DNA from: Patescibacteria group bacterium
GTDB lineage: Bacteria > Patescibacteriota > Minisyncoccia > Phycocordibacterales > UBA9973
Direction: 5' to 3'
NCBI GenBank assembly: GCA_038063535.1
Contig: JBBTUV010000003.1
Coordinates: 416 to 64,415, forward strand
DNA length: 64,000 nucleotides
Below are positions 1,785 through 14,361 of this stretch, one piece after another (within the stretch, counting starts at the first letter, position 1; each line of letters opens with the position of its first letter). Position numbers and translations under genes: made by a program. The notes under the pieces were generated by a model. That model was not told the origin of the DNA. It did no database searches and saw only the letters and a program-made list of their open reading frames with translations.

Positions 1785-1858
1785 GCGGGATTAGTTTAAT
1801 GGTAAAATATCAGTTTTCCAAACTGAGGTTGGGAGTTCGATTCTCCCATCCCGCACCA
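1785..1858 (+). tRNA. tRNA-Gly (anticodon TCC), CCA encoded
   Basis: Acceptor GCGGGAU/AUCCCGC, anticodon loop UUUCCAA, T-loop UUCGAUU. The encoded CCA shares its A with the ATG of the next CDS. Confidence 0.8.
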
Positions 1859-2595
1859 TGATTTATTTATACGCATTCGGAAGTGTGATTCTGGTGAGTC
1901 TCATTTCACTGGTCGGGATTTTTGTGCTCACTTTTAAAGAAGAGTGGGTACGCAAATATATTTTTTTTCTAGTAAGTCTCGCGGTCGGCGCGCTCTTGGG
2001 CGATGCCTTTATTCACCTAATCCCGGAGGCCTTCGAAGAAGGAATTTCGTCGGCGGGGCTCTTCGTCACTGTTGGCATCCTTATCTTTTTTATCTTTGAA
2101 AAATTTATGCACTGGCACCACCACGGTGCGGACGTAGAAGAGCCGGAAATTCACCCGGTTGGCAAGCTTGTTCTTTTCTCTGATGGGGTTCACAACTTCA
2201 TTGACGGGATAATCATTGGCGTTTCCTACATGGTGAGTATTCCCCTTGGGCTCGCGAGCACGCTCGCAGTTGTTCTGCACGAAATCCCGCAGGAGATCGG
2301 CGACTTTGCCGTGCTCCTCCACGCCGGCTACGCCAAGAAGCGAGCGCTCTATCTTAACTTTCTGTCGGCCGCAGCGGCGATCGCCGGAACTCTTTTGGCA
2401 TTTATTCTCGGGGAAGGCGGTAAGGAGCTCGCCGCCTGGGTTCTGCCATTTGCCGCCGGGGGTTTCATCTACATCGCTATGAGCGATCTCATCCCGGAAC
2501 TTCATAAAACAAAAGAGCTGAAGCACTCTTCACTTCAGCTGGTTGCGGTTCTTATCGGAATTCTCGCGATGCTCGCACTCACGCTTTTAGAGTAG
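1858..2595 (+). CDS. ZIP family metal (zinc) transporter
   Basis: ZupT/ZIP signature HNFIDG and HEIPQEIGDF. About 8 TM segments and a His-rich loop (HWHHHG). Confidence 0.85.
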   Translation: MIYLYAFGSVILVSLISLVGIFVLTFKEEWVRKYIFFLVSLAVGALLGDAFIHLIPEAFEEGISSAGLFVTVGILIFFIFEKFMHWHHHGADVEEPEIHPVGKLVLFSDGVHNFIDGIIIGVSYMVSIPLGLASTLAVVLHEIPQEIGDFAVLLHAGYAKKRALYLNFLSAAAAIAGTLLAFILGEGGKELAAWVLPFAAGGFIYIAMSDLIPELHKTKELKHSSLQLVAVLIGILAMLALTLLE

Positions 2596-2601
2596 TTGGT
2601 C

Positions 2602-3633
2602 TTAGAACGGATTCTTTGCGCCCTTGACTTCGATATGAAGATGCGGGCCGGTCGAGCGGCCGGTATTGCCCACATAACCGATCGTCTCGCTTTTCTCGAC
2701 TCTAGCGCCCACCGAGGTCCCAAGCCGGGACTGGTGCGCGTAGATGGTTTGGGTTCCATTTGGATGGGAGATAATGGTGAGCACCCCGTATCCGCCGTTC
2801 CATCCGGTTCGGGCGAATGTTACGATGCCTTCTGCGGCGGCGAGAATCGGGGTGCCGGTCGGCGCTGCAAGATCAACTCCACGGTGGGTTGATGTAATGC
2901 CTCGGGTGCGCCGCGCTCCGGGAACGGGATTGGTGAAGTAACCGCTCGCGTCTCTGAGAGCAGCCTGTGAAGTCCCTCCCCGAGCGATCGCCGTTCCGGC
3001 TCTCGGAGCGCTTGGGATATTCGCGCCTGGGATCATCAGTTTTTCTCCAATTGAGAGTTTGACGCCGGCTTCAATGTCGTTCGAAAGAAGAATGTCGTCC
3101 ACGTCTACCTTGTATAAGTTAGCTATCCCCTGAAGCGTATCGCCCTTTTTAACCGTATGCTCTACCCCGGAGAAAGGCAGGATAAGGAGAATATCTCCAA
3201 CTTTGAGCTTGGCTCCTTTTTGCAAATCATTTGCGGAAAGAACAGTATCCACCGAGATGTCGAACATTTGGGCTACCTGTGAAACAGTATCGCCCGGCCG
3301 GACTACGTATACGTTAACCTCACCACCCGAAAATTCGACGCCGCCAGTGCCTCCCAAAGCGCCGAGTGGGCTTACCTCTGCGAGAAGCGCATTATCGGAA
3401 AGAATACTAACCTCTCTGCTTGCATCAACATCGCTTTTGCTGTCGCGGACTGAGGCGGAAGAAAAATTGGCCTCAAGTAAGGCCATAGTTTGAGAGTTAG
3501 CACCATCAAGAGAGGGGTTGGTGAGCACGGTCTCCGCTGAAGCTTCGCCAAAGATGGAAGAAAAGAGTCCGGCAGCGACCGGCACGGGCACGGAAAGTCC
3601 TCCCAGGGAACCCAGGAAAAGCGATGCAGACAA
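2602..3633 (-). CDS. LysM-domain M23 family peptidoglycan endopeptidase
   Basis: Signal peptide, two LysM repeats (VKKGDTLQGIANLYKV..., VRPGDTVSQVAQMF...), C-terminal M23 motifs (HRGVDLAA...GNTGRSTGPHLHIEV). Confidence 0.85.
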   Translation of the reverse strand: MSASLFLGSLGGLSVPVPVAAGLFSSIFGEASAETVLTNPSLDGANSQTMALLEANFSSASVRDSKSDVDASREVSILSDNALLAEVSPLGALGGTGGVEFSGGEVNVYVVRPGDTVSQVAQMFDISVDTVLSANDLQKGAKLKVGDILLILPFSGVEHTVKKGDTLQGIANLYKVDVDDILLSNDIEAGVKLSIGEKLMIPGANIPSAPRAGTAIARGGTSQAALRDASGYFTNPVPGARRTRGITSTHRGVDLAAPTGTPILAAAEGIVTFARTGWNGGYGVLTIISHPNGTQTIYAHQSRLGTSVGARVEKSETIGYVGNTGRSTGPHLHIEVKGAKNPF

Positions 3634-3908
3634 AAGAAAACTGAGTATTTTGCTTGTTTTTCTTGGAGGTTTTATAAAACAAAGACGATATCGAGAGAAT
3701 CCCCTTAAGCCTCAGCCCCGCTAGAGCAGGGGGTTGCTTAGAATCACAGGACGACCAAATTGTACTGCAAACAAAGGTTCTCGCGATGGTTACTATCATC
3801 CAGCCAATCAGCCATATATTCCATACCCCTACTGCCGTATCATTCCAGGGTAGCCCAAAACCGCCCCGGGGTCAAACCCCTCCTGTGGAAAGAGAAAACA
3901 GCATATAT

Positions 3909-6900
3909 TTAGGCTGCCATTTTGGGCCTCTCTAGGACTCTTAGATTGTATTTCTCCTGGACACTTTTCTTTATCGTGCCGTCCTTATTCAGAAATTTAG
4001 CTCCCAAATAATCGTGGATCTCTGAATCGAGATTCACTTGTGTACCTCGTATAAAAGCGAGCGTTTGTGGATAAGTATTGCGGCATTGCGGTCTCCCGTT
4101 CTCATAGTCCATAACAGCAAGGAGCATGCTCATGTATCCCGAATCGATCTTTTTGTTCGCCTTTGCCATCGCTTTTACCAGCTCCGGGAGTTTGCGCCGA
4201 TTCACCACCGCTTCGGCGAACAGCTTAAAGTCTATTTTGAATTTTTCCTGAAGAGCTTTGAGAACCCGCCGTTCTGGACCATATGCTCGGTTGGAAAAAT
4301 CGAGAGTTCCGCCGGCTTCGCGATAGGCTTCCAATGCAAGATCTTCAGTGACTGCCTCATTGAGAGCTCTGCCTCTTTCTTTCAGATCCGGCATATTTGC
4401 ATTTCTTCCGATGTATCTAGTCAGCCTCAAGCCGGTGCGACGAGATGTGTAAGTCTTTTGCTCTTTGTCCTCCGTCTCAAATCCCCAATAGTTATTGGCA
4501 ACAGAATCGTGAATCACTTCATGGGAAATGGTGTGAAGAAGAGAATCTTCAAGTGCATCTGGTTCTAAGGTCTCAAGCATATTCATGTTAATGAAGATTT
4601 CCCCTTCCTCAACGATACAAATCCCTGCCGCTTCGACAAATCCACGGTTCGCCATAAATTCATAGAGTCCTACTAAGTGAACTTTCCCGGACGGAGGCAT
4701 CGGGCTGCGATTTTCCCCACCATACTTTTTCATCAAGGCCTCGACATTTTGGTATGCTTTTTCGACGATTTTAGTGTATTTTTCTTTGGTCTCGGCACTC
4801 TCATACTTTTTTCGGTCCGCAAGGATTCTGAATTCCACGTAATCAGCCGCTTCGCGTGCCGAGGGAGCAGCATTGATCTTCTCAAGATCTTCTCGAAGCC
4901 ACACAGTGAAAGGACTTCTGATCATCCTCTCGGCGATTTCTCTGGGTTCGGGGAAAACGTGTTCAGCCGGGTAACGCTCTCCCAGGTCTTCCTCGCCCTC
5001 CAAGGTTTGGCTCCGGCTTGCGATGGAAGCCTTTTCCTTGTATTTTCCTGGTGGAATAGGTTGGGGAGGAAGAACATCAGACTCCTTGCTCCATTCTTTT
5101 GCTTTTTCTTCGAAAGTTTTGCGGCCAAAACCTTTCGCCTCGCCGGTCCCTTTGTAGTCTTCCAGCGCCTTACGTGGGAAAATCGGAATAAAGGACGGAA
5201 GTTCCCAATCTCTATCGACAACTCTGTGGAAAGTGTACTCATGTTTTTCAATAAGCCCGGGAGTGAATTTTTGCCCCACATCGGTCGCGATTGGAGTATA
5301 TTTTCCATCTTCGTCGGCAATAACTGCTTCCAGAAATCCAGGATGGGTCAGTCGGCCACTGGCATCTTTTCCAAAAAGAGAATACAAGCTCTCCGGGATT
5401 ATCGGTTTTCCATCTGCCCCCATTTCTATCACGATTCCTTCATGCTGATTTCCGGTATCAGGAGTAAAGAGTAATTTAATTTTTCCTTCACTCATCAGCG
5501 TGGCAATGTCGGGATGTCGAGAACCCTGAAAAGATTCGAATTGCTTCAAATTGCTTAAATCAATCGCGGGGTGCCCTTGTTCGTCAAAGCCAGTGCTGTT
5601 TACTCCGCCATAGTGAAGCCTAAGTTCGTTTAAATCCGGACGAGTAGTTTCGTTCATCAAATGAGCGTGGCGATGAATTTCCTGCAATTGCTCCGCGTAG
5701 GAATGACGATTTGCTTGTAAATATTCTTCGATGCTCCCGGCAGGAATTTTTGTACCATGATGTTCAAGAGAAAGGCCCAGTTGTTCTACCGAAAGATTCA
5801 AGATTTTGCCATCTTTTCCTTGAATTATTTCCTTCACTAGAACTTCGTGAGTTCTTGAATCAACCAAGGAGCTGGTTCCGTTCGTGTTTTCGATTATCTC
5901 GGTTCCTTGAGGAGCGCGGATTGTCGCAAGGTCGTTGTGGAGTGGGGCGTAAGCGTGAGAAAGATCGGTGGGAACTTCCTGGCCACTTCGCTCGCCTCGG
6001 AAATAATGCCAGAGTCGCTGTATAGATGTTTCCCCTCCGTTTCGTGGATGGATTCCTGTCTTATCAAGCCCTTCCTGGACAACCGCCCCTATTCCAGCAC
6101 CAATTATTCCGCCTACCACGGCCGCCTTGCCCATTTCCTTTGCCCTAAATTTACCAAGCTCTTTATTCACTCCGCCGATCCCTTCATTGAGAACCGCCAT
6201 TCTTTCGGCAAGAGAAGTTTGAAATGCCGCGAGGTCTTTTATCTGCACTTTTGTTTCAGCGAGAATCCTCATAAGCTCGAGGCGGCTTTGGCTAAGCACT
6301 TTTTCCCCTTCGTACTCTATAAGATCAAGCCCGTCAGTTTCAGAAATGGACATTCTGGCTTCCGCATCGGCGGTTTCCTCGATGAGCTGTCTTAATGCTT
6401 CTGGATTTCCCATCCGCGCTTGATTGGAAAGTTCGATCAGCCGATCCTTGATCTCGGATGCAAGACGCATGTCGTAGACGAAGCGCTCCATCGCCTCGCG
6501 ATTTTTTCTTTTCCCTTTTTTGTTTTCGAACTCGGAGATGTCTCGTCCCATTGCTCGCTCCATGCGGTGGGTTGCTACGTCAACTTTTATATCTTTTGAT
6601 CTGCGTAAGGCCCCGAAAAGCGCTCCTGCGCCAAGTGCTCCCCCTAAGAAGTACACCGGTTTCTTGGCAAAATAGGCAGCGACCGAAAGCCCCGCCGCAA
6701 GCCCGGTCGGGGAGAAGAGGTGCGCGAGAACCCTATGTTTTTGGGTACGCTCGATGATCTTGTCGATAAATCCCAAGTTCTGTTCGGTTTTGACAACGCG
6801 CTTCGCATTCCCGAGATCGACTGCAAGTCCTGCGTCGAGGCGGGCGAGTCCCTCGCCATGCTCGGCGAGTTTTCGGAATTCGCGTGCTGCTTCTAGAAAA

Positions 6901-7697
6901 TTATCCGCAGAGAGATGTCCCGGCCCAAAAGAATCGGGGTGTTTTTCGTTTACCTTACGCAAGATCTCGTGCTTTTTTTTCGTAAATTCCTCGTCAGCCA
7001 TTTTGCCGAGAGCATATTCGCGCATGAGATCGATAATAGCCTTGTTGAACTCCGGGTCTTCCAATGTTTTTTTGCTTTCACCTCCAGTGGCCCGGAATAA
7101 ATCCTCCTGGAACCTTTCAAACTCCGCGCGCATTTCCCGCTCGTGTTCTGCTTTCTTTTCCGGGTCGGCAAAGATGTTCTCCTCTCCTTTGATCCGAGCA
7201 AGTTCCTGGGCGTAGTAGCGGCGTCGATAAAATTCTTCGGCGGGGCGATACCAAAGTTTTTTGAAAAAACTGACGACCCCTTTTCTGCTTAGAACTTCAT
7301 TTACCCGTTCAGTGGCCCTTTGCTTTGCCAGTTGCTCTGCAATGTCAGAAACATCTACCGCTAAAAGCCGTTCGGGCACATGAAATTCTTTTTTTCCTTT
7401 TTCCTCTTTCTTATCGTCTGGTTCCTCTTCTTTTTCTTGCTTTTTCTTTTCCTCTTTTACATCCTTTAAATCTTCGATTTCTGCTTTCTTGGAGTTTATA
7501 TTATCGAGCTCTTCTTCGAGCTTGCGATATTCTTTTTTTGCTTTCTCGAGTTGGTTCCAAAGGTTGGCTTTTGCCTCCTTTTCCATTTCAAAATTGTACC
7601 CCTCTTCAAGGTTGTGGATGTTTTCCTTTAATTCCTTGTATTTAGAGAGGAGGTCGGCTTCTTTATTAGTTGGTTGTAGGCTTTCCCTCATAGCCAA
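3909..7697 (-). CDS. large hypothetical protein (1262 aa): N-terminal Lys/Glu-rich coiled coil, central Gly-rich TM segments, C-terminal region with HExxH motif
   Basis: Long uninterrupted ORF. Charged coiled-coil N-terminus. Hydrophobic GxxxG-type segments (LAAGLSVAAYFAKKPVYFLGGALGAGALFGAL; VVGGIIGAGIGAVV). HEVIHD motif near the C-terminus. No recognisable family. Confidence 0.6.
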   Translation of the reverse strand: MAMRESLQPTNKEADLLSKYKELKENIHNLEEGYNFEMEKEAKANLWNQLEKAKKEYRKLEEELDNINSKKAEIEDLKDVKEEKKKQEKEEEPDDKKEEKGKKEFHVPERLLAVDVSDIAEQLAKQRATERVNEVLSRKGVVSFFKKLWYRPAEEFYRRRYYAQELARIKGEENIFADPEKKAEHEREMRAEFERFQEDLFRATGGESKKTLEDPEFNKAIIDLMREYALGKMADEEFTKKKHEILRKVNEKHPDSFGPGHLSADNFLEAAREFRKLAEHGEGLARLDAGLAVDLGNAKRVVKTEQNLGFIDKIIERTQKHRVLAHLFSPTGLAAGLSVAAYFAKKPVYFLGGALGAGALFGALRRSKDIKVDVATHRMERAMGRDISEFENKKGKRKNREAMERFVYDMRLASEIKDRLIELSNQARMGNPEALRQLIEETADAEARMSISETDGLDLIEYEGEKVLSQSRLELMRILAETKVQIKDLAAFQTSLAERMAVLNEGIGGVNKELGKFRAKEMGKAAVVGGIIGAGIGAVVQEGLDKTGIHPRNGGETSIQRLWHYFRGERSGQEVPTDLSHAYAPLHNDLATIRAPQGTEIIENTNGTSSLVDSRTHEVLVKEIIQGKDGKILNLSVEQLGLSLEHHGTKIPAGSIEEYLQANRHSYAEQLQEIHRHAHLMNETTRPDLNELRLHYGGVNSTGFDEQGHPAIDLSNLKQFESFQGSRHPDIATLMSEGKIKLLFTPDTGNQHEGIVIEMGADGKPIIPESLYSLFGKDASGRLTHPGFLEAVIADEDGKYTPIATDVGQKFTPGLIEKHEYTFHRVVDRDWELPSFIPIFPRKALEDYKGTGEAKGFGRKTFEEKAKEWSKESDVLPPQPIPPGKYKEKASIASRSQTLEGEEDLGERYPAEHVFPEPREIAERMIRSPFTVWLREDLEKINAAPSAREAADYVEFRILADRKKYESAETKEKYTKIVEKAYQNVEALMKKYGGENRSPMPPSGKVHLVGLYEFMANRGFVEAAGICIVEEGEIFINMNMLETLEPDALEDSLLHTISHEVIHDSVANNYWGFETEDKEQKTYTSRRTGLRLTRYIGRNANMPDLKERGRALNEAVTEDLALEAYREAGGTLDFSNRAYGPERRVLKALQEKFKIDFKLFAEAVVNRRKLPELVKAMAKANKKIDSGYMSMLLAVMDYENGRPQCRNTYPQTLAFIRGTQVNLDSEIHDYLGAKFLNKDGTIKKSVQEKYNLRVLERPKMAA

Positions 7698-7699
7698 TT

Positions 7700-8020
7700 T
7701 TATTTAACTATGCCCAAATATGTATCTCTAAACGACATCATCGCCTGAGAAAATAATTCTTGGGCATTTGGAAAGTTCGTTGATATAAATTGGTTTACTT
7801 TCTCTTGGTCTCCCCCTTCTGTGATTTCCCGGAAGGAAGTTAATTTGTTTTCATCTAGGTTAGAAACAACTGTAGCCAGAAAACGATCTTCGAGGCGATT
7901 TTTAAGATCCGCGAACATTTGAGACCGCACTTCCGGAGAAACATTGTCCATACCGGCTTCGCTGAGCATTTTATTAAGAAATTCGTCTATTACTTTTTGC
8001 GAACTGAGTTCTGTTAGCAT
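7700..8020 (-). CDS. hypothetical small protein (106 aa), co-oriented and abutting the 1262-aa gene
   Basis: ORF with its stop 2 nt upstream of the large gene start. No TM segments and no known motif. Confidence 0.4.
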   Translation of the reverse strand: MLTELSSQKVIDEFLNKMLSEAGMDNVSPEVRSQMFADLKNRLEDRFLATVVSNLDENKLTSFREITEGGDQEKVNQFISTNFPNAQELFSQAMMSFRDTYLGIVK

Positions 8021-8113
8021 GTTATTTTGATTACTTTTAAAATTTAACCACAGAAAGTTTTATAATGCAATACCTAAACATTATAGCATATTCCATTGTG
8101 CTATAGTTGGAGA

Positions 8114-10147
8114 ATGCAAGATCACCTTGTCGAGCTCAACGAAAAACAGCGGGAGGCGGCGACGCATGTAAGCGGGCCGCTTTTGATCGTTGCCGGAGCG
8201 GGGGCAGGGAAGACAAAGACGATAACGCAGAGGATCGTGAACCTGATCAGCGGGGGCGTGGCACCGGAAAACATCCTGGCGGTGACTTTTACAAATAAAG
8301 CCGCAAAAGAAATGCGCGATCGGGTGATCGCGGAGGTGGAGAAGCTCGGCGGGCAGAGCACCCGGCCTTTTATAAGCACTTTCCACTCGCTCGGCGTACA
8401 CATAATAAAAGAAAACGCGCGAGCCCTCGGTTTCAATCGCCACTTTACGATACTCGACGAGAATGACGCGACGGCTCTCATAAAAGAAGCCATGCTCGAT
8501 CTTGAGCTTGATCCCAAGGAGCATGATCCTAGGCGGATTCGCGGAATAGTGAGTCGAGAGAAGGGTAATTTCGTCGACTCTGACGGCTTCCGCGAGCGGC
8601 TCGGAGGGGGAGCGAGCGCTATACAGAGAGTTGTCGCGCAGGTTTGGCCGCGCTATGAACGAGCAAAAGCCAAGGAAAACTCGCTTGATTTCGATGATTT
8701 ACTTCTTTTCGCGGTGAAGCTTCTTCAGGGGAAAAGGGAGGTAAGGGAAGATTATCAGGAGCGTTGGCAATACATTCATGTTGACGAATATCAGGACACG
8801 AATGAAGTGCAGTACCTTCTCACGCGCCTCCTTTCGGAGAATCATCAGAACATTTGCGTGGTCGGGGATGCCGATCAGAACATTTACTCCTGGCGGGGGG
8901 CAAACCTCCGGAACATTCTCCATTTCGAGAAAGACTATCCAGGGGCAAAAATAATTTTGCTCGAAGAAAATTACCGCTCGACCGGAAACATACTGGATGC
9001 GGCGAATGCGGTCATCAAGAAAAATAAATTCCGGCCGGAGAAAAATTTATTTACAAGAAAAAACGCAGGTGAGAAAATTTCTTTATACAGCGCTCTGGAC
9101 GAAACCGATGAAGCGGACTTCGTCGCGACGAAAATTTTGGAGATGCTCGACTCTTCCAAGAGAAGAGAAGATGTTCTTGAGAAAAGCCCTGGGAGCGCGG
9201 CGGCGCGGACACGAGGAATTTTTCAGCAGGAAAATATCCGTGCTTTTCGAGAGAATGTCTTCTCTGATATAGCTGTGCTATACCGCGCTAACTTTCAGTC
9301 GCGAGCACTTGAAGAGGCGATGCTCAATTATAATATTCCGTACCAAGTGCTTGGCGTGAAATTTTTCGAGCGAAAGGAGATAAAGGATACGCTCGCCTAC
9401 TTACGCGCGGCACTTAATCCCGCGAGCCTCTCGGACATAAAAAGAATCATCAACTTCCCACGCCGGGGGATCGGCAAGGCAACACTGGCGAAAATTTTTT
9501 CTGGCGACACCGAAAGTTTACCGGAGAAAGTTAAGATGAAAATAGAAAATTTTTACAAATTGCTCGCGGAAATTAGAAAAAAAATTGAAAGTGATAAAGC
9601 ATCTGATGTAATAAAATTCACTGTGAAAATTTCCGGCATCGAGAAGGAACTTTCCGAGGGTACGGATGAAGAGCTGGAAAAGCTTGAAAATATAAGGGAA
9701 TTAGCGACATTGGCGCTCAAGTATGATGGCCTGGAAAATGGTATTGAAAAACTTCTAGAGGAAGCGGCGCTCGCGAGCGACCAGGACTCACTCGTCATCA
9801 ATCAAGAAAAAAAGGAGAGCAAAAATGCCGTGCGCTTGATGACTGTACATGCGTCGAAGGGATTGGAATTCAAATATGTTTTTGTTGTTGGATTAGAGGA
9901 AGGATTGTTCCCCCATACGAAAAGCCGTGAAGCGAAAACGGGCGAGGACTCCGAAGAAGAGCGCCGGCTCTTCTATGTCGCGCTCACTCGCGCGAAAGAA
10001 AAACTATTCCTCTGTTATGCGGATTACCGCACCATATTCGGCTCGCGGGCAATGAACATGCCAAGCGAATTTATTTTGGACGTGCCGAAAAATCTGCTCG
10101 AGATCGAAACCGGAGAAAAAATTAAAACCGTTGACATCGATGAATAA
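8114..10147 (+). CDS. uvrD: ATP-dependent DNA helicase UvrD/PcrA family
   Basis: Walker A GAGAGKTKT. UvrD motifs throughout (TFTNKAAKEMRDR, VDEYQDTN, YRS, VHASKGLEF). The track start 8096 is a TTG; the first ATG is at 8114 (MQDHLVELNEKQ). Confidence 0.9.
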   Translation: MQDHLVELNEKQREAATHVSGPLLIVAGAGAGKTKTITQRIVNLISGGVAPENILAVTFTNKAAKEMRDRVIAEVEKLGGQSTRPFISTFHSLGVHIIKENARALGFNRHFTILDENDATALIKEAMLDLELDPKEHDPRRIRGIVSREKGNFVDSDGFRERLGGGASAIQRVVAQVWPRYERAKAKENSLDFDDLLLFAVKLLQGKREVREDYQERWQYIHVDEYQDTNEVQYLLTRLLSENHQNICVVGDADQNIYSWRGANLRNILHFEKDYPGAKIILLEENYRSTGNILDAANAVIKKNKFRPEKNLFTRKNAGEKISLYSALDETDEADFVATKILEMLDSSKRREDVLEKSPGSAAARTRGIFQQENIRAFRENVFSDIAVLYRANFQSRALEEAMLNYNIPYQVLGVKFFERKEIKDTLAYLRAALNPASLSDIKRIINFPRRGIGKATLAKIFSGDTESLPEKVKMKIENFYKLLAEIRKKIESDKASDVIKFTVKISGIEKELSEGTDEELEKLENIRELATLALKYDGLENGIEKLLEEAALASDQDSLVINQEKKESKNAVRLMTVHASKGLEFKYVFVVGLEEGLFPHTKSREAKTGEDSEEERRLFYVALTRAKEKLFLCYADYRTIFGSRAMNMPSEFILDVPKNLLEIETGEKIKTVDIDE

Positions 10148-10961: not shown

Positions 10962-11876
10962 TTGGTAAAAAACAAAAGGGTCGTCCTCATCGCTTTTGCG
11001 GTACTTTTTCTTGTGCTGCTTCTGTTCTCAAGATCGAGCTCGAAGTGGAGCGCGACGTCCCCGGTTTCGGAGAATGGCCTCGTCTATGGCAGTGAATCGG
11101 TTGGCGCCCTCCTAGCGAAAGACACCGACGGCGACGGAGTGTTCGATTGGGAGGAAGGACTCTGGGGCACGGACCCCTTGAAACCCGATACGGACGGAGA
11201 CGGGGAGTCGGACCAGAACCAAATCGCAAAAATGAAGGCCGAGCGGGTGGCTGGCGCAGAAGCCAGCGGAGAAATATCCTATGCCGAAGAAGGAAGTCTG
11301 ACCCAGACCGACAAATTCGCTCGAGAACTTTTCACCACTGTCGTTGCCTTGAGCCAAGCGGGTGACGTCGATGACGGCACAGTGGCCGACATCACTGCCT
11401 CTCTGGCTACGCAGATTCAGAACCCGGCACAGAGAAAAGTCTTTACCTCGGCGGACTTGAAAATAATAAGCGATAACAGCACGCAATCTTTTATGAATTA
11501 CAGCAACGACACCGACAAGATTTTTGTCGGTAAGTATCCATTTGATGAGAAAGTCGCCGATATTTTGATAAAATTCTCTGAAGGGGAAGGGGAAGGGGAC
11601 GCCGCGGTCCTTGTAGAACTTGATCCAATAATAAAAAATCTTGCTGGTATGGTGACTGGGATGACGACAATAAATATTCCTTCGGAAATTGCTACCTATC
11701 ACTTGGCTGTTACGAATAGTCTGGAGAAAATTTACGAGAATCTGAGCGATATCAGGCTCATAGATAGCGACCCGGTCCTTTCGATAGGCGCGATAAGTAC
11801 ATATTCTGACAATCTTGAAGCTCTAGATACATCGATTGTCGCTGAATTAAAAGCAATTATGGATAAATTCCAATAA
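10962..11876 (+). CDS. secreted/membrane-anchored protein with DxDxDG calcium-binding-type repeats (first gene of T4SS-like cluster)
   Basis: N-terminal hydrophobic anchor (VVLIAFAVLFLVLLLF). Repeats DTDGDGVFD and DTDGDGESD. TTG start with upstream AAGAG. Confidence 0.55.
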   Translation: MVKNKRVVLIAFAVLFLVLLLFSRSSSKWSATSPVSENGLVYGSESVGALLAKDTDGDGVFDWEEGLWGTDPLKPDTDGDGESDQNQIAKMKAERVAGAEASGEISYAEEGSLTQTDKFARELFTTVVALSQAGDVDDGTVADITASLATQIQNPAQRKVFTSADLKIISDNSTQSFMNYSNDTDKIFVGKYPFDEKVADILIKFSEGEGEGDAAVLVELDPIIKNLAGMVTGMTTINIPSEIATYHLAVTNSLEKIYENLSDIRLIDSDPVLSIGAISTYSDNLEALDTSIVAELKAIMDKFQ

Positions 11877-11877
11877 T

Positions 11878-14361
11878 ATGATTTTTAAAAATCAAAAAAT
11901 ACAAAAGTTTCTTGCCGCACTGGTCTTGGTGGCGATTTTGGCAACTCCCATGATGATTCCGAGGAAAGCCGATGCTCTTTTTGGAGTCGGGGATATTTCC
12001 TTCGATCCCGCCGTCTTTTTGAACACCCTAGTGAGCAAAATTCAAGACGTCATTAAGCTAAAAATAAAATTCAAAGAAATTCTCAATGAGATTTTAAACA
12101 AAATTTCAAAGAAGATTGCGATGCGCGCGCTTACCAGGATGACCGAAAGCACGGTGACCTGGATAAACAGCGGCTTCCACGGCAAGCCCTTATTCTTACA
12201 AAACCCGGATACCTTTTTCGGCGACATTACCAAATTTGAAATCAGAAAGCTGGTGGATGTTTACGGCTACAACTCTTCCCGATATCCGTTCGGCAAGCAG
12301 TGGTCACTGGACGTTATCAACGCATACAAGGGCCGACTTCAAAACAACGCCTCATACAGCTTGAGTAATCTAATTCAAGATGAAGTATATTTAAACAGCT
12401 ATCGCTCGAACTTCGCAGTCGGCGGCTGGAATGGATTTCTTCTGCAAACTCAGTACCCGGAAAACAACTATATCGGCTTTACCATGCTTGCGAATGAAGA
12501 GCTGGCTCGCAGGCTCAACACCGACCCTAATGCAAACAACGAGATCGGAAAAGTAAAAACGACTCTGCAGCAAGGCTTAGGCTTCCTTTCCCCGCAGACT
12601 TGCAGTTCGAACCCGGGCCTGACTCGAAACCCATACGCTCCTCCTGATTTTAAATTTAACGAAGAGTATAAACCTCCGGAGGTATTTAGTAGGGAAAGTT
12701 ATATGAAAACGGACGCGAACACAGGCCTTCGCGTTCCCGATGATGCGGCTTACCTAGCAGATGTAGCGGCTAAAAGATTGTATGATAGTGGATACAACTC
12801 AAGAAAAGGAATCTCGCAAATTAACTGGACGAATAACAATACTTGCACGGGCGGATGGGTAAATACTACTCCCGGTTCGGTGGTGGCTGGCAAGATCACC
12901 GAGGCACTTAACGTCCCAGAAAACCAGACCGGTTGGAAGGCGGTGATCGGAGGGAGTCTCGCATCGATCTTTGATTCGCTCTTAAACAAATTCCTCGGTT
13001 CGGGCTTGGACGCCCTGGCAAGCAAGATCAACCCGCCGGCGGAGAAACCCGACAACTGGGACTACCTCGGCAATACTCTAGGAAGTCCGGCTACATATAA
13101 CCCATATAACGACAGCCCATTCGGCGGGCCGGATGAAGTTATAGTGCTTGACGAATTCAAGACAGCAGTAGATCAGGGGATTGCCGCAACTCGGGAAGAG
13201 CTCGCACTTCTCGATAACCCGAATTCAATCCAATACGGCGCGATTCAATACCTCTCCGCCATCTGGCCAAAAGTGCGTCAGCTCGACATTTGCCTGCCGG
13301 GCCCGAACTACAAATGGGAAGAAAGGTTCGATGAAGATATAAGGAACACGAGCATGAACTGGAATAAAAAAGCGAAAGATGATGGGGAAAAATTGCGGGA
13401 GGTCGGAGTAATCATCAAAGAGCTTCAATTTGCCGCCGATTTCTTCAAAGATTGGATTCGCAATCAAATGATAACGTCACTTCCGAGCGCTTTCTTTTTC
13501 CTAGATACGATTAACGAAACCGAAGCGAACGATACCCTCGTCATGGAGATAGTCAACGCAAAGAGACTTAAGGCTAAAGCCCTTCCCGCTCTTATTGCGA
13601 TCCAGGGAGCGCTCAATTCAGAAGAATTCAACGTTCAGCCCGAAGCAGGGACCCCGGCAGAAAAAAGACTTATAGACTTAAAAAAACAGTACAATATCAT
13701 TGCATATTCAATCTCAAACTCCGACACGATCGAGGAGGCTCGCGCGCAACTCAAAAGTTTAATTAATAAACTGTCAGACTTAAACAGTCTCACCGCCCAG
13801 TGTGCGACTGAAAGAAAAAACTCTCCTGACAAATGGAACCTTGTCGCCAATTGGGACGATCCTTATGGAACGAAGAGTTTTAAGGCGAGTGAAAAAGGAA
13901 AAAACATAAGAGTAAACGCTGTCAGAAAATCTGACGGGGTTTACTCAAGCATTATAATGAACTATACAACTAGTGGAACTGAACGGGAGCAGTTCTGTTC
14001 CCTTCCAGTGCTAAACGGGTATACCCATGAGATGTTTGTAAATGCGATGGACCCAAGAGAGGGGGGAACCAATGTCATATACCCTGAAATTCCTCGGGTC
14101 GCTGGCGCGATAAGAACTGAAACGGTGGGCAGTTCCGTGATTCTTTTTAACTGTAACGATATTTTCCGCTCTTACCCGCTCGACTACAAAGGAAACATTC
14201 CGGGCCAGCTGACGATTGACCCACCACCACCAGCCGACCCACTTATCGATAGTACGCCAGACGGCGGAACACCGCCGCCGGGGACACCATGCGACCCGGC
14301 GACTGACCCGAGCTGTGTGCCAGCCGGTTGTGGTGGCACGGGACAGATCGCGTGCACGTAG
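11878..14361 (+). CDS. large secreted protein (827 aa), T4SS-like cluster, Pro/Cys-rich C-terminal tail
   Basis: Signal peptide-like N-terminus. No known domains. C-terminus is PPPPADPLIDSTPDGGTPPPGTPCDPATDPSCVPAGCGGTGQIACT. Start is 2 nt after the previous stop. Confidence 0.6.
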   Translation: MIFKNQKIQKFLAALVLVAILATPMMIPRKADALFGVGDISFDPAVFLNTLVSKIQDVIKLKIKFKEILNEILNKISKKIAMRALTRMTESTVTWINSGFHGKPLFLQNPDTFFGDITKFEIRKLVDVYGYNSSRYPFGKQWSLDVINAYKGRLQNNASYSLSNLIQDEVYLNSYRSNFAVGGWNGFLLQTQYPENNYIGFTMLANEELARRLNTDPNANNEIGKVKTTLQQGLGFLSPQTCSSNPGLTRNPYAPPDFKFNEEYKPPEVFSRESYMKTDANTGLRVPDDAAYLADVAAKRLYDSGYNSRKGISQINWTNNNTCTGGWVNTTPGSVVAGKITEALNVPENQTGWKAVIGGSLASIFDSLLNKFLGSGLDALASKINPPAEKPDNWDYLGNTLGSPATYNPYNDSPFGGPDEVIVLDEFKTAVDQGIAATREELALLDNPNSIQYGAIQYLSAIWPKVRQLDICLPGPNYKWEERFDEDIRNTSMNWNKKAKDDGEKLREVGVIIKELQFAADFFKDWIRNQMITSLPSAFFFLDTINETEANDTLVMEIVNAKRLKAKALPALIAIQGALNSEEFNVQPEAGTPAEKRLIDLKKQYNIIAYSISNSDTIEEARAQLKSLINKLSDLNSLTAQCATERKNSPDKWNLVANWDDPYGTKSFKASEKGKNIRVNAVRKSDGVYSSIIMNYTTSGTEREQFCSLPVLNGYTHEMFVNAMDPREGGTNVIYPEIPRVAGAIRTETVGSSVILFNCNDIFRSYPLDYKGNIPGQLTIDPPPPADPLIDSTPDGGTPPPGTPCDPATDPSCVPAGCGGTGQIACT

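Follow-up and report, generated by a model that had tools for sequence, protein, structure and literature searches.

Within a 64,000-nucleotide (nt) stretch of a Patescibacteria group bacterium contig, hereafter the window, we characterized a two-gene unit on the minus strand. It encodes a 106-amino-acid (aa) protein of the Pfam family DUF5663 (gene 1, 7700..8020) and a giant modular protein of 1262 aa (gene 2, 3909..7697). As judged from conserved motifs and a structure model, the C-terminal part of the giant protein is very probably a zincin-fold domain of the Glu-zincin type that is absent from curated libraries. This uncurated Glu-zincin on a novel carrier module, encoded together with DUF5663, is a real feature, whereas its substrate, topology and role we infer. 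Our preferred reading, held tentatively and at a little under an even chance, is that of a DUF5663-partnered, membrane-tethered carrier that presents a zinc peptidase and is probably linked to the envelope or to division. Homologous proteins and related loci are referred to below by P and L numbers, and the giant protein of the window is called the query.

The C-terminal domain, probably of the Glu-zincin type

The C-terminal domain covers aa 906–1262 (3912..4982, minus strand, as are all features of the two genes given below), as recognised through a profile search and an AlphaFold model. With a profile built on the C-terminal 374 aa (A2), we searched 1.84 billion representative proteins exhaustively and obtained 103 protein clusters at E ≤ 1e-3; 18 of these reached E ≤ 1e-30. 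About 15 of the 103 clusters were giants of the same architecture, and most others were proteins of 350–1000 aa with the domain core located mid-protein. The HExxH motif was found in the members of almost all clusters. When 67 distant full-length members were aligned, no columns were invariant apart from H, E, H and a single Glu some 50 residues further on. The core alignment, made of 42 sequences from the 103 clusters with a mean identity of 24%, likewise left only H1059, E1060, H1063 and E1114 invariant (42/42). The HEVIH motif (aa 1059–1063, 4509..4523) would provide the zinc ligands H1059 and H1063 and the catalytic base E1060. The third proposed ligand, E1114, lies in EAVTE (aa 1114–1118, 4344..4358), within the pattern E-A-[VI]-T-[EV]-E, 51 residues past the second His in the query and 41–70 residues past it across the family. 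It opens an ExxxE motif (E1114-x-x-x-E1118) whose second acid is Glu, not Asp. Moreover, Y1139 (41/42) and E1142 (40/42), both in YGPE (aa 1139–1142, 4272..4283), were near-invariant in the core alignment, and Y1139 is a candidate transition-state stabiliser. Zinc binding and peptide hydrolysis are proposed from this signature. An earlier note on this DNA had pointed to the acidic residues of a downstream FETEDKE run; as ligands they are not supported. That run falls in a poorly conserved, low-confidence loop, and the conserved acid is instead E1114 in NEAVTED.

Glu-zincins are defined by HEXXH and a Glu ligand that follows some 20–60 residues later in an EXXXD-type motif on a separate subdomain (PMC3356374; PMC3890501). 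In agreement with this definition, the HEXXH motif of our domain lay on a predicted α-helix and the downstream Glu, in its ExxxE motif, on another predicted helix. The AlphaFold2 model of the domain, computed with six sequences, reached a predicted local distance difference test (pLDDT) of 79.2 and a predicted template modelling score (pTM) of 0.81. It consisted, in order, of helices, three short strands, the helix ending in HExxH, a disordered loop, the long E1114 helix and a helical bundle. In model numbering, HExxH stood at the C-terminal end of helix 158–175 and the E1114 motif on helix 222–239. The predicted order of strands and helices fits a zincin.

Foldseek searches with this model, a check which the earlier note had recommended, gave a list dominated by zincins. 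The top match was selecase; the other weak matches, from these and other searches, included collagenase H, M4, HtpX, PepO, lethal factor, SprT-like proteins, Tox-MPTase3, projannalysin, M48 and IrrE-like proteins. A broader core profile (A7) matched YbeY (E 0.14) and projannalysin (E 0.61) in the PDB, both marginally and both aligned on the HExxH helix. The query matched none of the curated peptidase families in Pfam and NCBIfam (M4, M13, M48, M56, M78, SprT-like, Tox-MPTase, DUF4157 and others). Pfam scans of the 67 distant homologues likewise gave no peptidase-family match above the curated cut-off; below it we observed SprT-like (five homologues), Peptidase_M91 (two), and Tox-MPTase3, YgjP-like, M1 and M13_N (one each). 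As the curated threshold was not reached, the giant protein belongs to no curated peptidase family. Nevertheless, the zincin-like metallopeptidase-type domain that the earlier note had proposed is supported by the sole invariance of HExxH and the downstream Glu, by the fitting order of elements in the AlphaFold model and by the weak zincin matches.

The picture has weak points. No curated or structural match was significant (Foldseek best E 1.1 against the PDB and 0.4 against BFVD; best PDB profile E 0.14), so that the fold assignment rests on the motifs and the predicted topology. We must also note that all four catalytic residues (H, E, H and the downstream E) have been lost together in two giant lineages, P0022 (1584 aa) and P0023 (1588 aa), which means that the domain can serve without catalysis. 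These proteins are pseudo-enzyme versions that retain fold-level similarity, and P0022 also keeps the C-terminal Ala-Ala described below. They are among the observations that would suit a structural or scaffold protein without enzyme activity (akin to SMC, flotillin or the cytoskeleton) in which HExxH is incidental, as would the long helical and charged regions of the giant protein. However, similarity to SMC, flotillin or any other structural family, which the earlier note had named as one outcome that would overturn its proposal, was absent from the Pfam, NCBIfam and PDB sequence searches. Moreover, H, E, H and E are the sole invariants across more than 40 sequences averaging 24% identity, and the signature is therefore not incidental. 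We consider a purely structural role highly improbable.

A large group of about 50 clusters (P0039–P0106, 600–1050 aa) consists of proteins with no signal peptide that contain the same zincin core mid-protein, with HE[YF]TH as the motif, and share a conserved N-terminal motif, ...GLQARLLLGG....

The query ends in Ala-Ala (aa 1261–1262, 3912..3917). The same -x-Ala-Ala end was observed in 21 of the 25 family members whose zincin domain reaches the protein end, namely in the query, P0002–P0006, P0012–P0016, P0018, P0020, P0022, P0024 and the L006 and L009 giants among others; paralogues with other C-terminal domains (P0007, P0008) do not have it. As a background, one of the 84 long open reading frames (ORFs) in the window ends in -AA. 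The last five residues of the giant protein were modelled at low confidence. The free C terminus ending in Ala-Ala corresponds to the formal description of an ssrA-like tail, and ClpX recognises C-terminal -LAA. Lopez-Pelegrin et al. reportedly described, in 2013, minigluzincin zymogens in which the active-site cleft is plugged. Going by the sequence, the tail could be an ssrA-like degron, a ligand of a tail-specific protease or a plug of the active-site cleft.

The N-terminal module, its exchangeable ends and DUF5663

The C-terminal domain is exchangeable on a constant N-terminal module (N-module) within the family. P0007 and P0008 aligned with the query up to the motif D-W-x-x-P-x-F-I-P-x-x-P-R-x-x-L-E (aa ~831–845) and diverged fully thereafter. 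P0008 ends in a GT9 heptosyltransferase-like domain (Pfam E 6e-8, TIGR02193 E 2.7e-8). The C-terminal domain of P0007 had no library match; it has a free-standing paralogue, the product of a 434-aa gene located two genes downstream (37% identity), which carries neither a signal peptide nor a hydrophobic segment. A GT-A assignment of the P0007 end domain, raised by the GT-A-like motifs CIPVAGHQE and NDADN, was not confirmed by library and PDB searches and was dropped. The 434-aa gene and a Ser/Thr protein kinase gene occupy L001 8870–11261, downstream of the P0007 giant gene; the 434-aa product shows these GT-A-like motifs too and likewise had no library match. The loci of P0007 and P0008 both retain the upstream DUF5663 gene, and N-module and DUF5663 were invariably found as a pair.

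The N-terminal ~850 aa constitute a conserved module of their own, with a conserved core of ~750 aa (aa 104–859) that follows a variable charged N terminus. The first region (aa 1–103, 7389..7697), recognised by its composition, contains the motif EMEKEAKANLWNQLEKAKKEYRKLEEELD. Its Lys/Glu richness, pointed out in the earlier note, holds (45% Lys+Glu over aa 1–100), while its length is ~105 aa and not ~130. The region is probably a coiled coil or a charged single helix, by its composition, and its only matches in the PDB sequence search were coiled-coil segments of Nup62. The motif EMEKEAKANLWNQLEKAKKEYRxLEEELD (window 7500–7640, giant aa ~20–65; P0007 aa ~70–125) was near-identical in the query and P0007 despite an overall identity of 28%. 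It also occurs twice in P0009 (aa 15–125), an otherwise unrelated 757-aa membrane protein from Nomurabacteria, and may be a shared docking motif. P0009 was rejected as a homologue of the N-module (hhalign probability 0.8%), the common part being the N-terminal motif only.

The region common to all family members starts with conserved helices (aa 104–320, 6738..7388; alignments A1 and A3), which are 40–69% identical to homologues and predicted as helical at low confidence. It continues with a Gly/Ala-rich hydrophobic helical hairpin (aa 321–366, 6600..6737) and a second conserved helical region (aa 367–519, 6141..6599) with the motifs HRMERAMG and AEARMS and further invariant residues, the latter being the best-predicted part of the N-module model (pLDDT 74–90). 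A third hydrophobic segment (aa 520–547, 6057..6140) with the glycine zipper KAAVVGGIIGAGIGAVVQEG precedes a β-rich, fast-evolving middle domain (aa 548–860, 5118..6056), in which the module ends. The middle domain, delimited by the alignments, is marked by N-x-T-x-x-P-D-x-N-E-L and by the D-W-x-x-P motif given above, and its strands were predicted at low confidence. A charged, Pro-containing linker (aa 861–905, 4983..5117), recognised by alignment identity and composition, leads to the zincin-type domain. Compared with P0005 and P0006, the helical part and the hydrophobic segments were the best-conserved stretches of the module (36–50% identity), whereas the β-rich domain (22–23%) and the zincin (23–44%) change more rapidly.

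No Pfam domain was found in the N-terminal ~900 aa, and PDB searches with the whole giant protein, the A2 profile and an N-module profile (A3) returned coiled-coil noise or nothing. The giant protein as a whole matched no Pfam, NCBIfam, PHROG or PADLOC family. Because the AlphaFold model of the N-module had a pLDDT of 56, its fold search (MscS, WW domains) was not interpretable and was disregarded; the MukBEF and JetABCD entries that Foldseek returned from the same low-confidence model were non-significant and were also set aside.

The hydrophobic part comprises three Gly-zipper segments in two Gly/Ala-rich regions. The earlier note had described two such segments. Two regions were indeed present, of which the first is a hairpin (aa 323–364) and the second a single segment (aa 522–545), both of marginal hydrophobicity. 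The hairpin has the conserved turn Y-F/L-x-K-K-P-x-Y-W/F-L-G-G-A-x-G-A-G, and the third segment follows the pattern K-A-A-V-V-G-G-x-x-G-x-x-x-G-A-x-V-Q-E-G. Positions and Gly-zipper patterns were conserved across the family, and the third segment of P0002 gave a weak match to Gly-zipper_Omp. On the Kyte–Doolittle scale, only aa 522–540 attained 1.74, and most homologues stayed below 1.6. Simple biological-scale sums for the segments were unfavourable (+4.5 to +6.5 kcal/mol) compared with −2.4 to +2.7 kcal/mol for the reference, the transmembrane (TM) helices of the ZIP transporter encoded 2 kb away in the window. That the giant is a TM protein is therefore no more than plausible.

The product of gene 1 is small, helical and acidic (17 Asp/Glu versus 11 Lys/Arg), and it has no signal peptide. 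It matched DUF5663 (PF18908) with 37.0 bits against a gathering cut-off of 23.7 (E 5e-9); all seven of the aligned counterparts matched the model as well. The statement of the earlier note that neither protein had a recognisable family thus applies to the giant protein in curated libraries and not to the small one. Pfam gives DUF5663 no described function, and the literature searched contained no mention of it; its obligatory association with the giant gene is new. DUF5663 is kept whichever C-terminal domain is present. It therefore accompanies the N-module rather than the enzyme end, which speaks against the immunity role that had been considered in the earlier note. A relationship to the C-domain of trigger factor was rejected as probably due to chance. 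The DUF5663 profile matched a single PDB sequence (E 0.008), residues 253–315 of the Vibrio cholerae protein (1t11_A) at the start of the chaperone C-domain; other trigger factors remained unmatched, and a lenient Pfam scan did not reproduce the resemblance.

Gene neighbourhoods, membrane topology and proposed role

The ORF listing confirmed the arrangement described in the earlier note, in which two minus-strand ORFs diverge from uvrD and are separated by 2 nt when the TTG start of the giant gene is used. The stop codon of the giant gene lies at 3909–3911. An alternative ATG two codons past the TTG yields a 1260-aa protein and a gap of 8 nt; this is the NCBI model P0001 (100% identical), from a Patescibacteria group bacterium metagenome-assembled genome (MAG). 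Gene 1 starts with ATG. A 75-bp intergenic region (8021..8095) separates it from the UvrD/PcrA-type helicase gene (8096..10147, plus strand), and promoter-like consensus matches in this region occurred on the plus strand only. Scans for promoters, terminators, repeats and Rfam families gave nothing specific to the unit. Each of the two genes is present in one copy in the window.

The pairing itself was conserved. In all nine loci for which upstream DNA was available (the window, L001, L003, L005/L006, L007, L008, L009, L010 and L011), a DUF5663 gene lay directly upstream of the giant gene, on the same strand, with gaps of 2–33 nt. The giant proteins of these loci are only 25–60% identical to the query (79% for the partial L007 match), and HExxH is conserved in the homologues. 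The two genes do form a unit, as the earlier note had assumed. Homologues of the giant protein were few. Three complete ones showed 54–60% identity, two 30–32% and two 25–28%; additional ones surfaced in genome and metagenome scans, and repeated word-index searches added hardly any new relatives. The phylogenetic distribution, which the earlier note had recommended to examine, emerged in part, with all homologues of the giant protein coming from Patescibacteria (Candidate Phyla Radiation, CPR) or from unclassified MAGs and metagenomes.

In four divergent loci, whose giant proteins share only 28–56% identity, the unit adjoins genes for a ZIP zinc transporter and an M23/LysM peptidase (window 1858–3633, L001 68–1930, L009 3093–4947, L011 6581–8420). 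UvrD is encoded on the far side of the unit in the window, L001 and L009, and KsgA comes next in the window and L001. The adjacency puts a zinc importer beside two putative zinc peptidases. Relative to the ZIP and M23 genes, the unit has one orientation in the window and L011 and the opposite one in L001 and L009. Two further loci, L003 (4240–14230) and L006 (1497–11109), have the order YqeY, FtsA, X, the unit and FtsZ; as FtsA and FtsZ show 91% identity between the two, they were treated as a single lineage. Neither ftsA nor ftsZ is present in the 64-kb window. Gene X (434 or 507 aa) codes for a protein with a signal peptide and hydrophobic segments, low-complexity sequence that is Pro-rich or made of KADDKT repeats, and a C-terminal coiled coil; it matched no Pfam family and has no counterpart in the window. 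Between the closely related genomes of L003 and L006, the giant protein is 58.5% and X 59% identical, versus 86% for DUF5663 and 91% for FtsA and FtsZ.

Downstream of the unit, the genes vary by locus (a 97-aa ORF or M23, a protein kinase, FtsZ, AbiEii, an NDH-2-like oxidoreductase, a 181-aa ORF). In L009 only, an inserted AbiEii toxin-type nucleotidyltransferase gene (11140–11805) separates the giant gene from uvrD. In the window, the 97-aa ORF (3506–3799, minus strand) is flanked by the giant and M23 genes, and it overlaps with the longest ORF for M23 at the latter's 5′ end; as it has neither a family nor a counterpart in the related loci, it is probably not a gene. Two adjoining ORFs of 304 and 827 aa (10962–14361, plus strand) follow ksgA. 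The former gave weak TSP3/LapA matches, the latter no Pfam family, and L001 has similarly sized genes in their place.

Across the related loci, we found no conserved downstream gene and no immunity gene that co-varies with the C-terminal domain, and phage, plasmid and viral collections contained no relatives of the unit. Being retained among core genes, with no mobile-element relatives, the unit looks like core-genome housekeeping, and its conserved position argues against a mobile toxin.

In the reading we tentatively prefer, DUF5663 would bind the N-module in the cytoplasm as an adaptor or chaperone, and the Gly-zipper segments would anchor the giant protein, probably oligomeric, at the membrane. 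The N-module would then act as a carrier that holds the C-terminal enzyme at the membrane, near membrane-proximal substrates. In this genome, the enzyme would be a zinc endopeptidase (ligands H1059, H1063 and E1114; base E1060; helper Y1139) that cuts a membrane-proximal protein or peptide tied to envelope growth or cell division. The -AA tail may control its activity or abundance as a regulatory tail, either degron or cleft plug. The link to envelope growth or division is suggested by the M23/LysM wall peptidase and the ftsA/ftsZ neighbourhoods. We lean towards a zincin that faces the cytoplasm via a monotopic or hairpin-type tether; delivery into the cytoplasm of another cell would be an alternative. 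Several observations point to a cytoplasmic face: the GT9 paralogue would need nucleotide sugars, the P0007 end domain has a cytosolic free-standing paralogue, the C terminus ends in -AA and the segments are only marginally hydrophobic. The zincin domain also has about 70 distant relatives with neither a signal peptide nor a TM segment, which count for it as well.

Other observations weigh against this reading. The link to division or the envelope is one of gene neighbourhood alone, the ftsA–ftsZ context is known from a single lineage, and a role of DUF5663 is deduced from co-occurrence alone. The N-module was poorly modelled, as stated above. The giant protein is far less conserved than FtsA and FtsZ between the same two genomes (58% versus 91%), as expected for a surface-exposed protein, and its C-terminal half evolves faster than the N-module. 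Three spanning segments after a charged N terminus with no signal peptide would place the C-terminal half outside, in conflict with a cytoplasmic face. The flank charges fit an outside location weakly, the flanks before and after the hairpin and before segment 3 being more basic than that after segment 3.

These last points, namely the odd number of segments, the flank charges and the faster C-terminal half, together with the M23/LysM neighbour in four loci, would suit an ecto-protease in the cell's own membrane, with a cytoplasmic N terminus, three spanning segments and the β-rich domain and zincin directed outwards. Such a protein would process cell-wall peptides, surface proteins or host proteins, like the streptococcal surface zinc metalloproteases. 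In paralogues, however, the same N-module bears either GT9 or a domain whose free-standing paralogue is cytosolic, neither of which could work outside the cell. Furthermore, the insertion scores are unfavourable for all three segments, and no relative of the zincin domain has a signal peptide. We regard an outward-facing protease as improbable, though a serious contender.

The weakness of the segments can also be read differently. They are far less hydrophobic than the true TM helices of the same genome, and soluble membrane-inserting toxins likewise have weakly hydrophobic segments. The giant protein might thus be a host-directed effector or toxin whose N-module hairpins insert into a target membrane and deliver an exchangeable warhead to the host of the episymbiont, with DUF5663 as a chaperone. 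The exchange of C-terminal enzyme domains on a constant N-module is in line with this idea, and glycosyltransferase and zincin warheads would meet substrates in a host cytoplasm. The fast evolution of the giant protein, the weak matches to the effector families Tox-MPTase3 and Peptidase_M91 and the distant domain relatives with no signal peptides also count in its favour. The partner is small, acidic and encoded upstream, as secretion chaperones are. On the other hand, the unit is single-copy in the window and holds a fixed position among core genes (uvrD, ksgA, ftsA, ftsZ) in lineages that are 25–30% identical. The loci have no conserved downstream immunity gene, the giant protein has neither a signal peptide nor a known trafficking domain (LXG, RHS, PT-TG etc.), and phages, plasmids and viral contigs gave no relatives. 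Catalytically dead versions are retained as well. All in all, an effector is unlikely. More doubtful still is the specific proposal that DUF5663 and the Gly-zipper N-module constitute a Patescibacteria-specific delivery system carrying warheads (zinc protease, GT9, GT-A-like) into the host. If true, it would be a new contact-dependent effector translocator, kept in the core genome because episymbiosis is obligate.

Patescibacteria genomes are tiny, and the retention of a 3.8–5.2 kb gene beside uvrD, ksgA and a wall peptidase or ftsA/ftsZ suggests that the unit is likely important for growth, division or dealings with the host. Through the pairing, DUF5663 acquires a functional context for the first time, that of an obligatory companion to a giant carrier. 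A clear catalytic signature defines a Glu-zincin family, uncurated so far and comprising at least 103 clusters, and the carrier module with exchangeable enzyme ends is novel and so far restricted to Patescibacteria (plus unclassified MAGs). The conserved -Ala-Ala tail offers a handle on regulation and topology. Were the effector reading true, the unit would represent a new host-interaction machine in a major uncultured radiation.

Comparison with known systems

Polymorphic toxins can carry Tox-MPTase tips and have small helical upstream partners of the LXG/Lap type. The unit resembles them in its constant N-terminal region, its exchangeable C-terminal enzymes and a small helical upstream partner that follows the N-terminal region, and one relative had a marginal Tox-MPTase3 match. 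Unlike polymorphic toxins, it has no known trafficking domain and no downstream immunity gene, keeps a fixed core position and is not associated with mobile elements.

In size and layout, the closest parallel to the giant protein is the streptococcal IgA1 protease/Zmp family (M26), whose members are very large, with N-terminal hydrophobic anchoring and a C-terminal HExxH+E domain. However, the giant protein did not match Pfam M26. Zmp proteins have a signal peptide or an LPXTG-type anchor and are clearly extracellular, whereas we lean towards a cytoplasmic location here.

The closest mechanistic parallels are cytoplasm-facing enzymes, BlaR1/MecR1 (M56), HtpX (M48) and FtsH (M41), in which a zincin is held by N-terminal hydrophobic segments. 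These proteins show no detectable sequence homology to ours. Their TM helices are strongly hydrophobic and either enclose the catalytic domain or directly precede it, whereas here the segments are marginal and the zincin follows ~500 aa downstream, behind the β-rich domain. Nevertheless, HtpX was among the weak Foldseek matches of the C-terminal domain, and the HEXXH, EXXXD and conserved Tyr of the BlaR1 Glu-zincin (PMC3356374) parallel H1059/H1063, E1114 and Y1139 of the giant protein.

Finally, the domain differs from the Glu-zincins of MEROPS subclan MA(E), both the thermolysin-like peptidases and the minimal minigluzincins (selecase, projannalysin, proabylysin), in that no match was significant (E 1.1 and 0.61) and no curated model reached its threshold. 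Its ~360 aa include additional helical bundles on either side, an N-terminal region of ~900 aa precedes it in the same protein, and it ends in -Ala-Ala. It nevertheless resembles them in the predicted small β-sheet that precedes the HExxH helix, and in the Glu on a later helix, set in an ExxxE/D-type motif whose distance falls inside the published 20–60 residues or slightly exceeds them (PMC3356374; PMC3890501).

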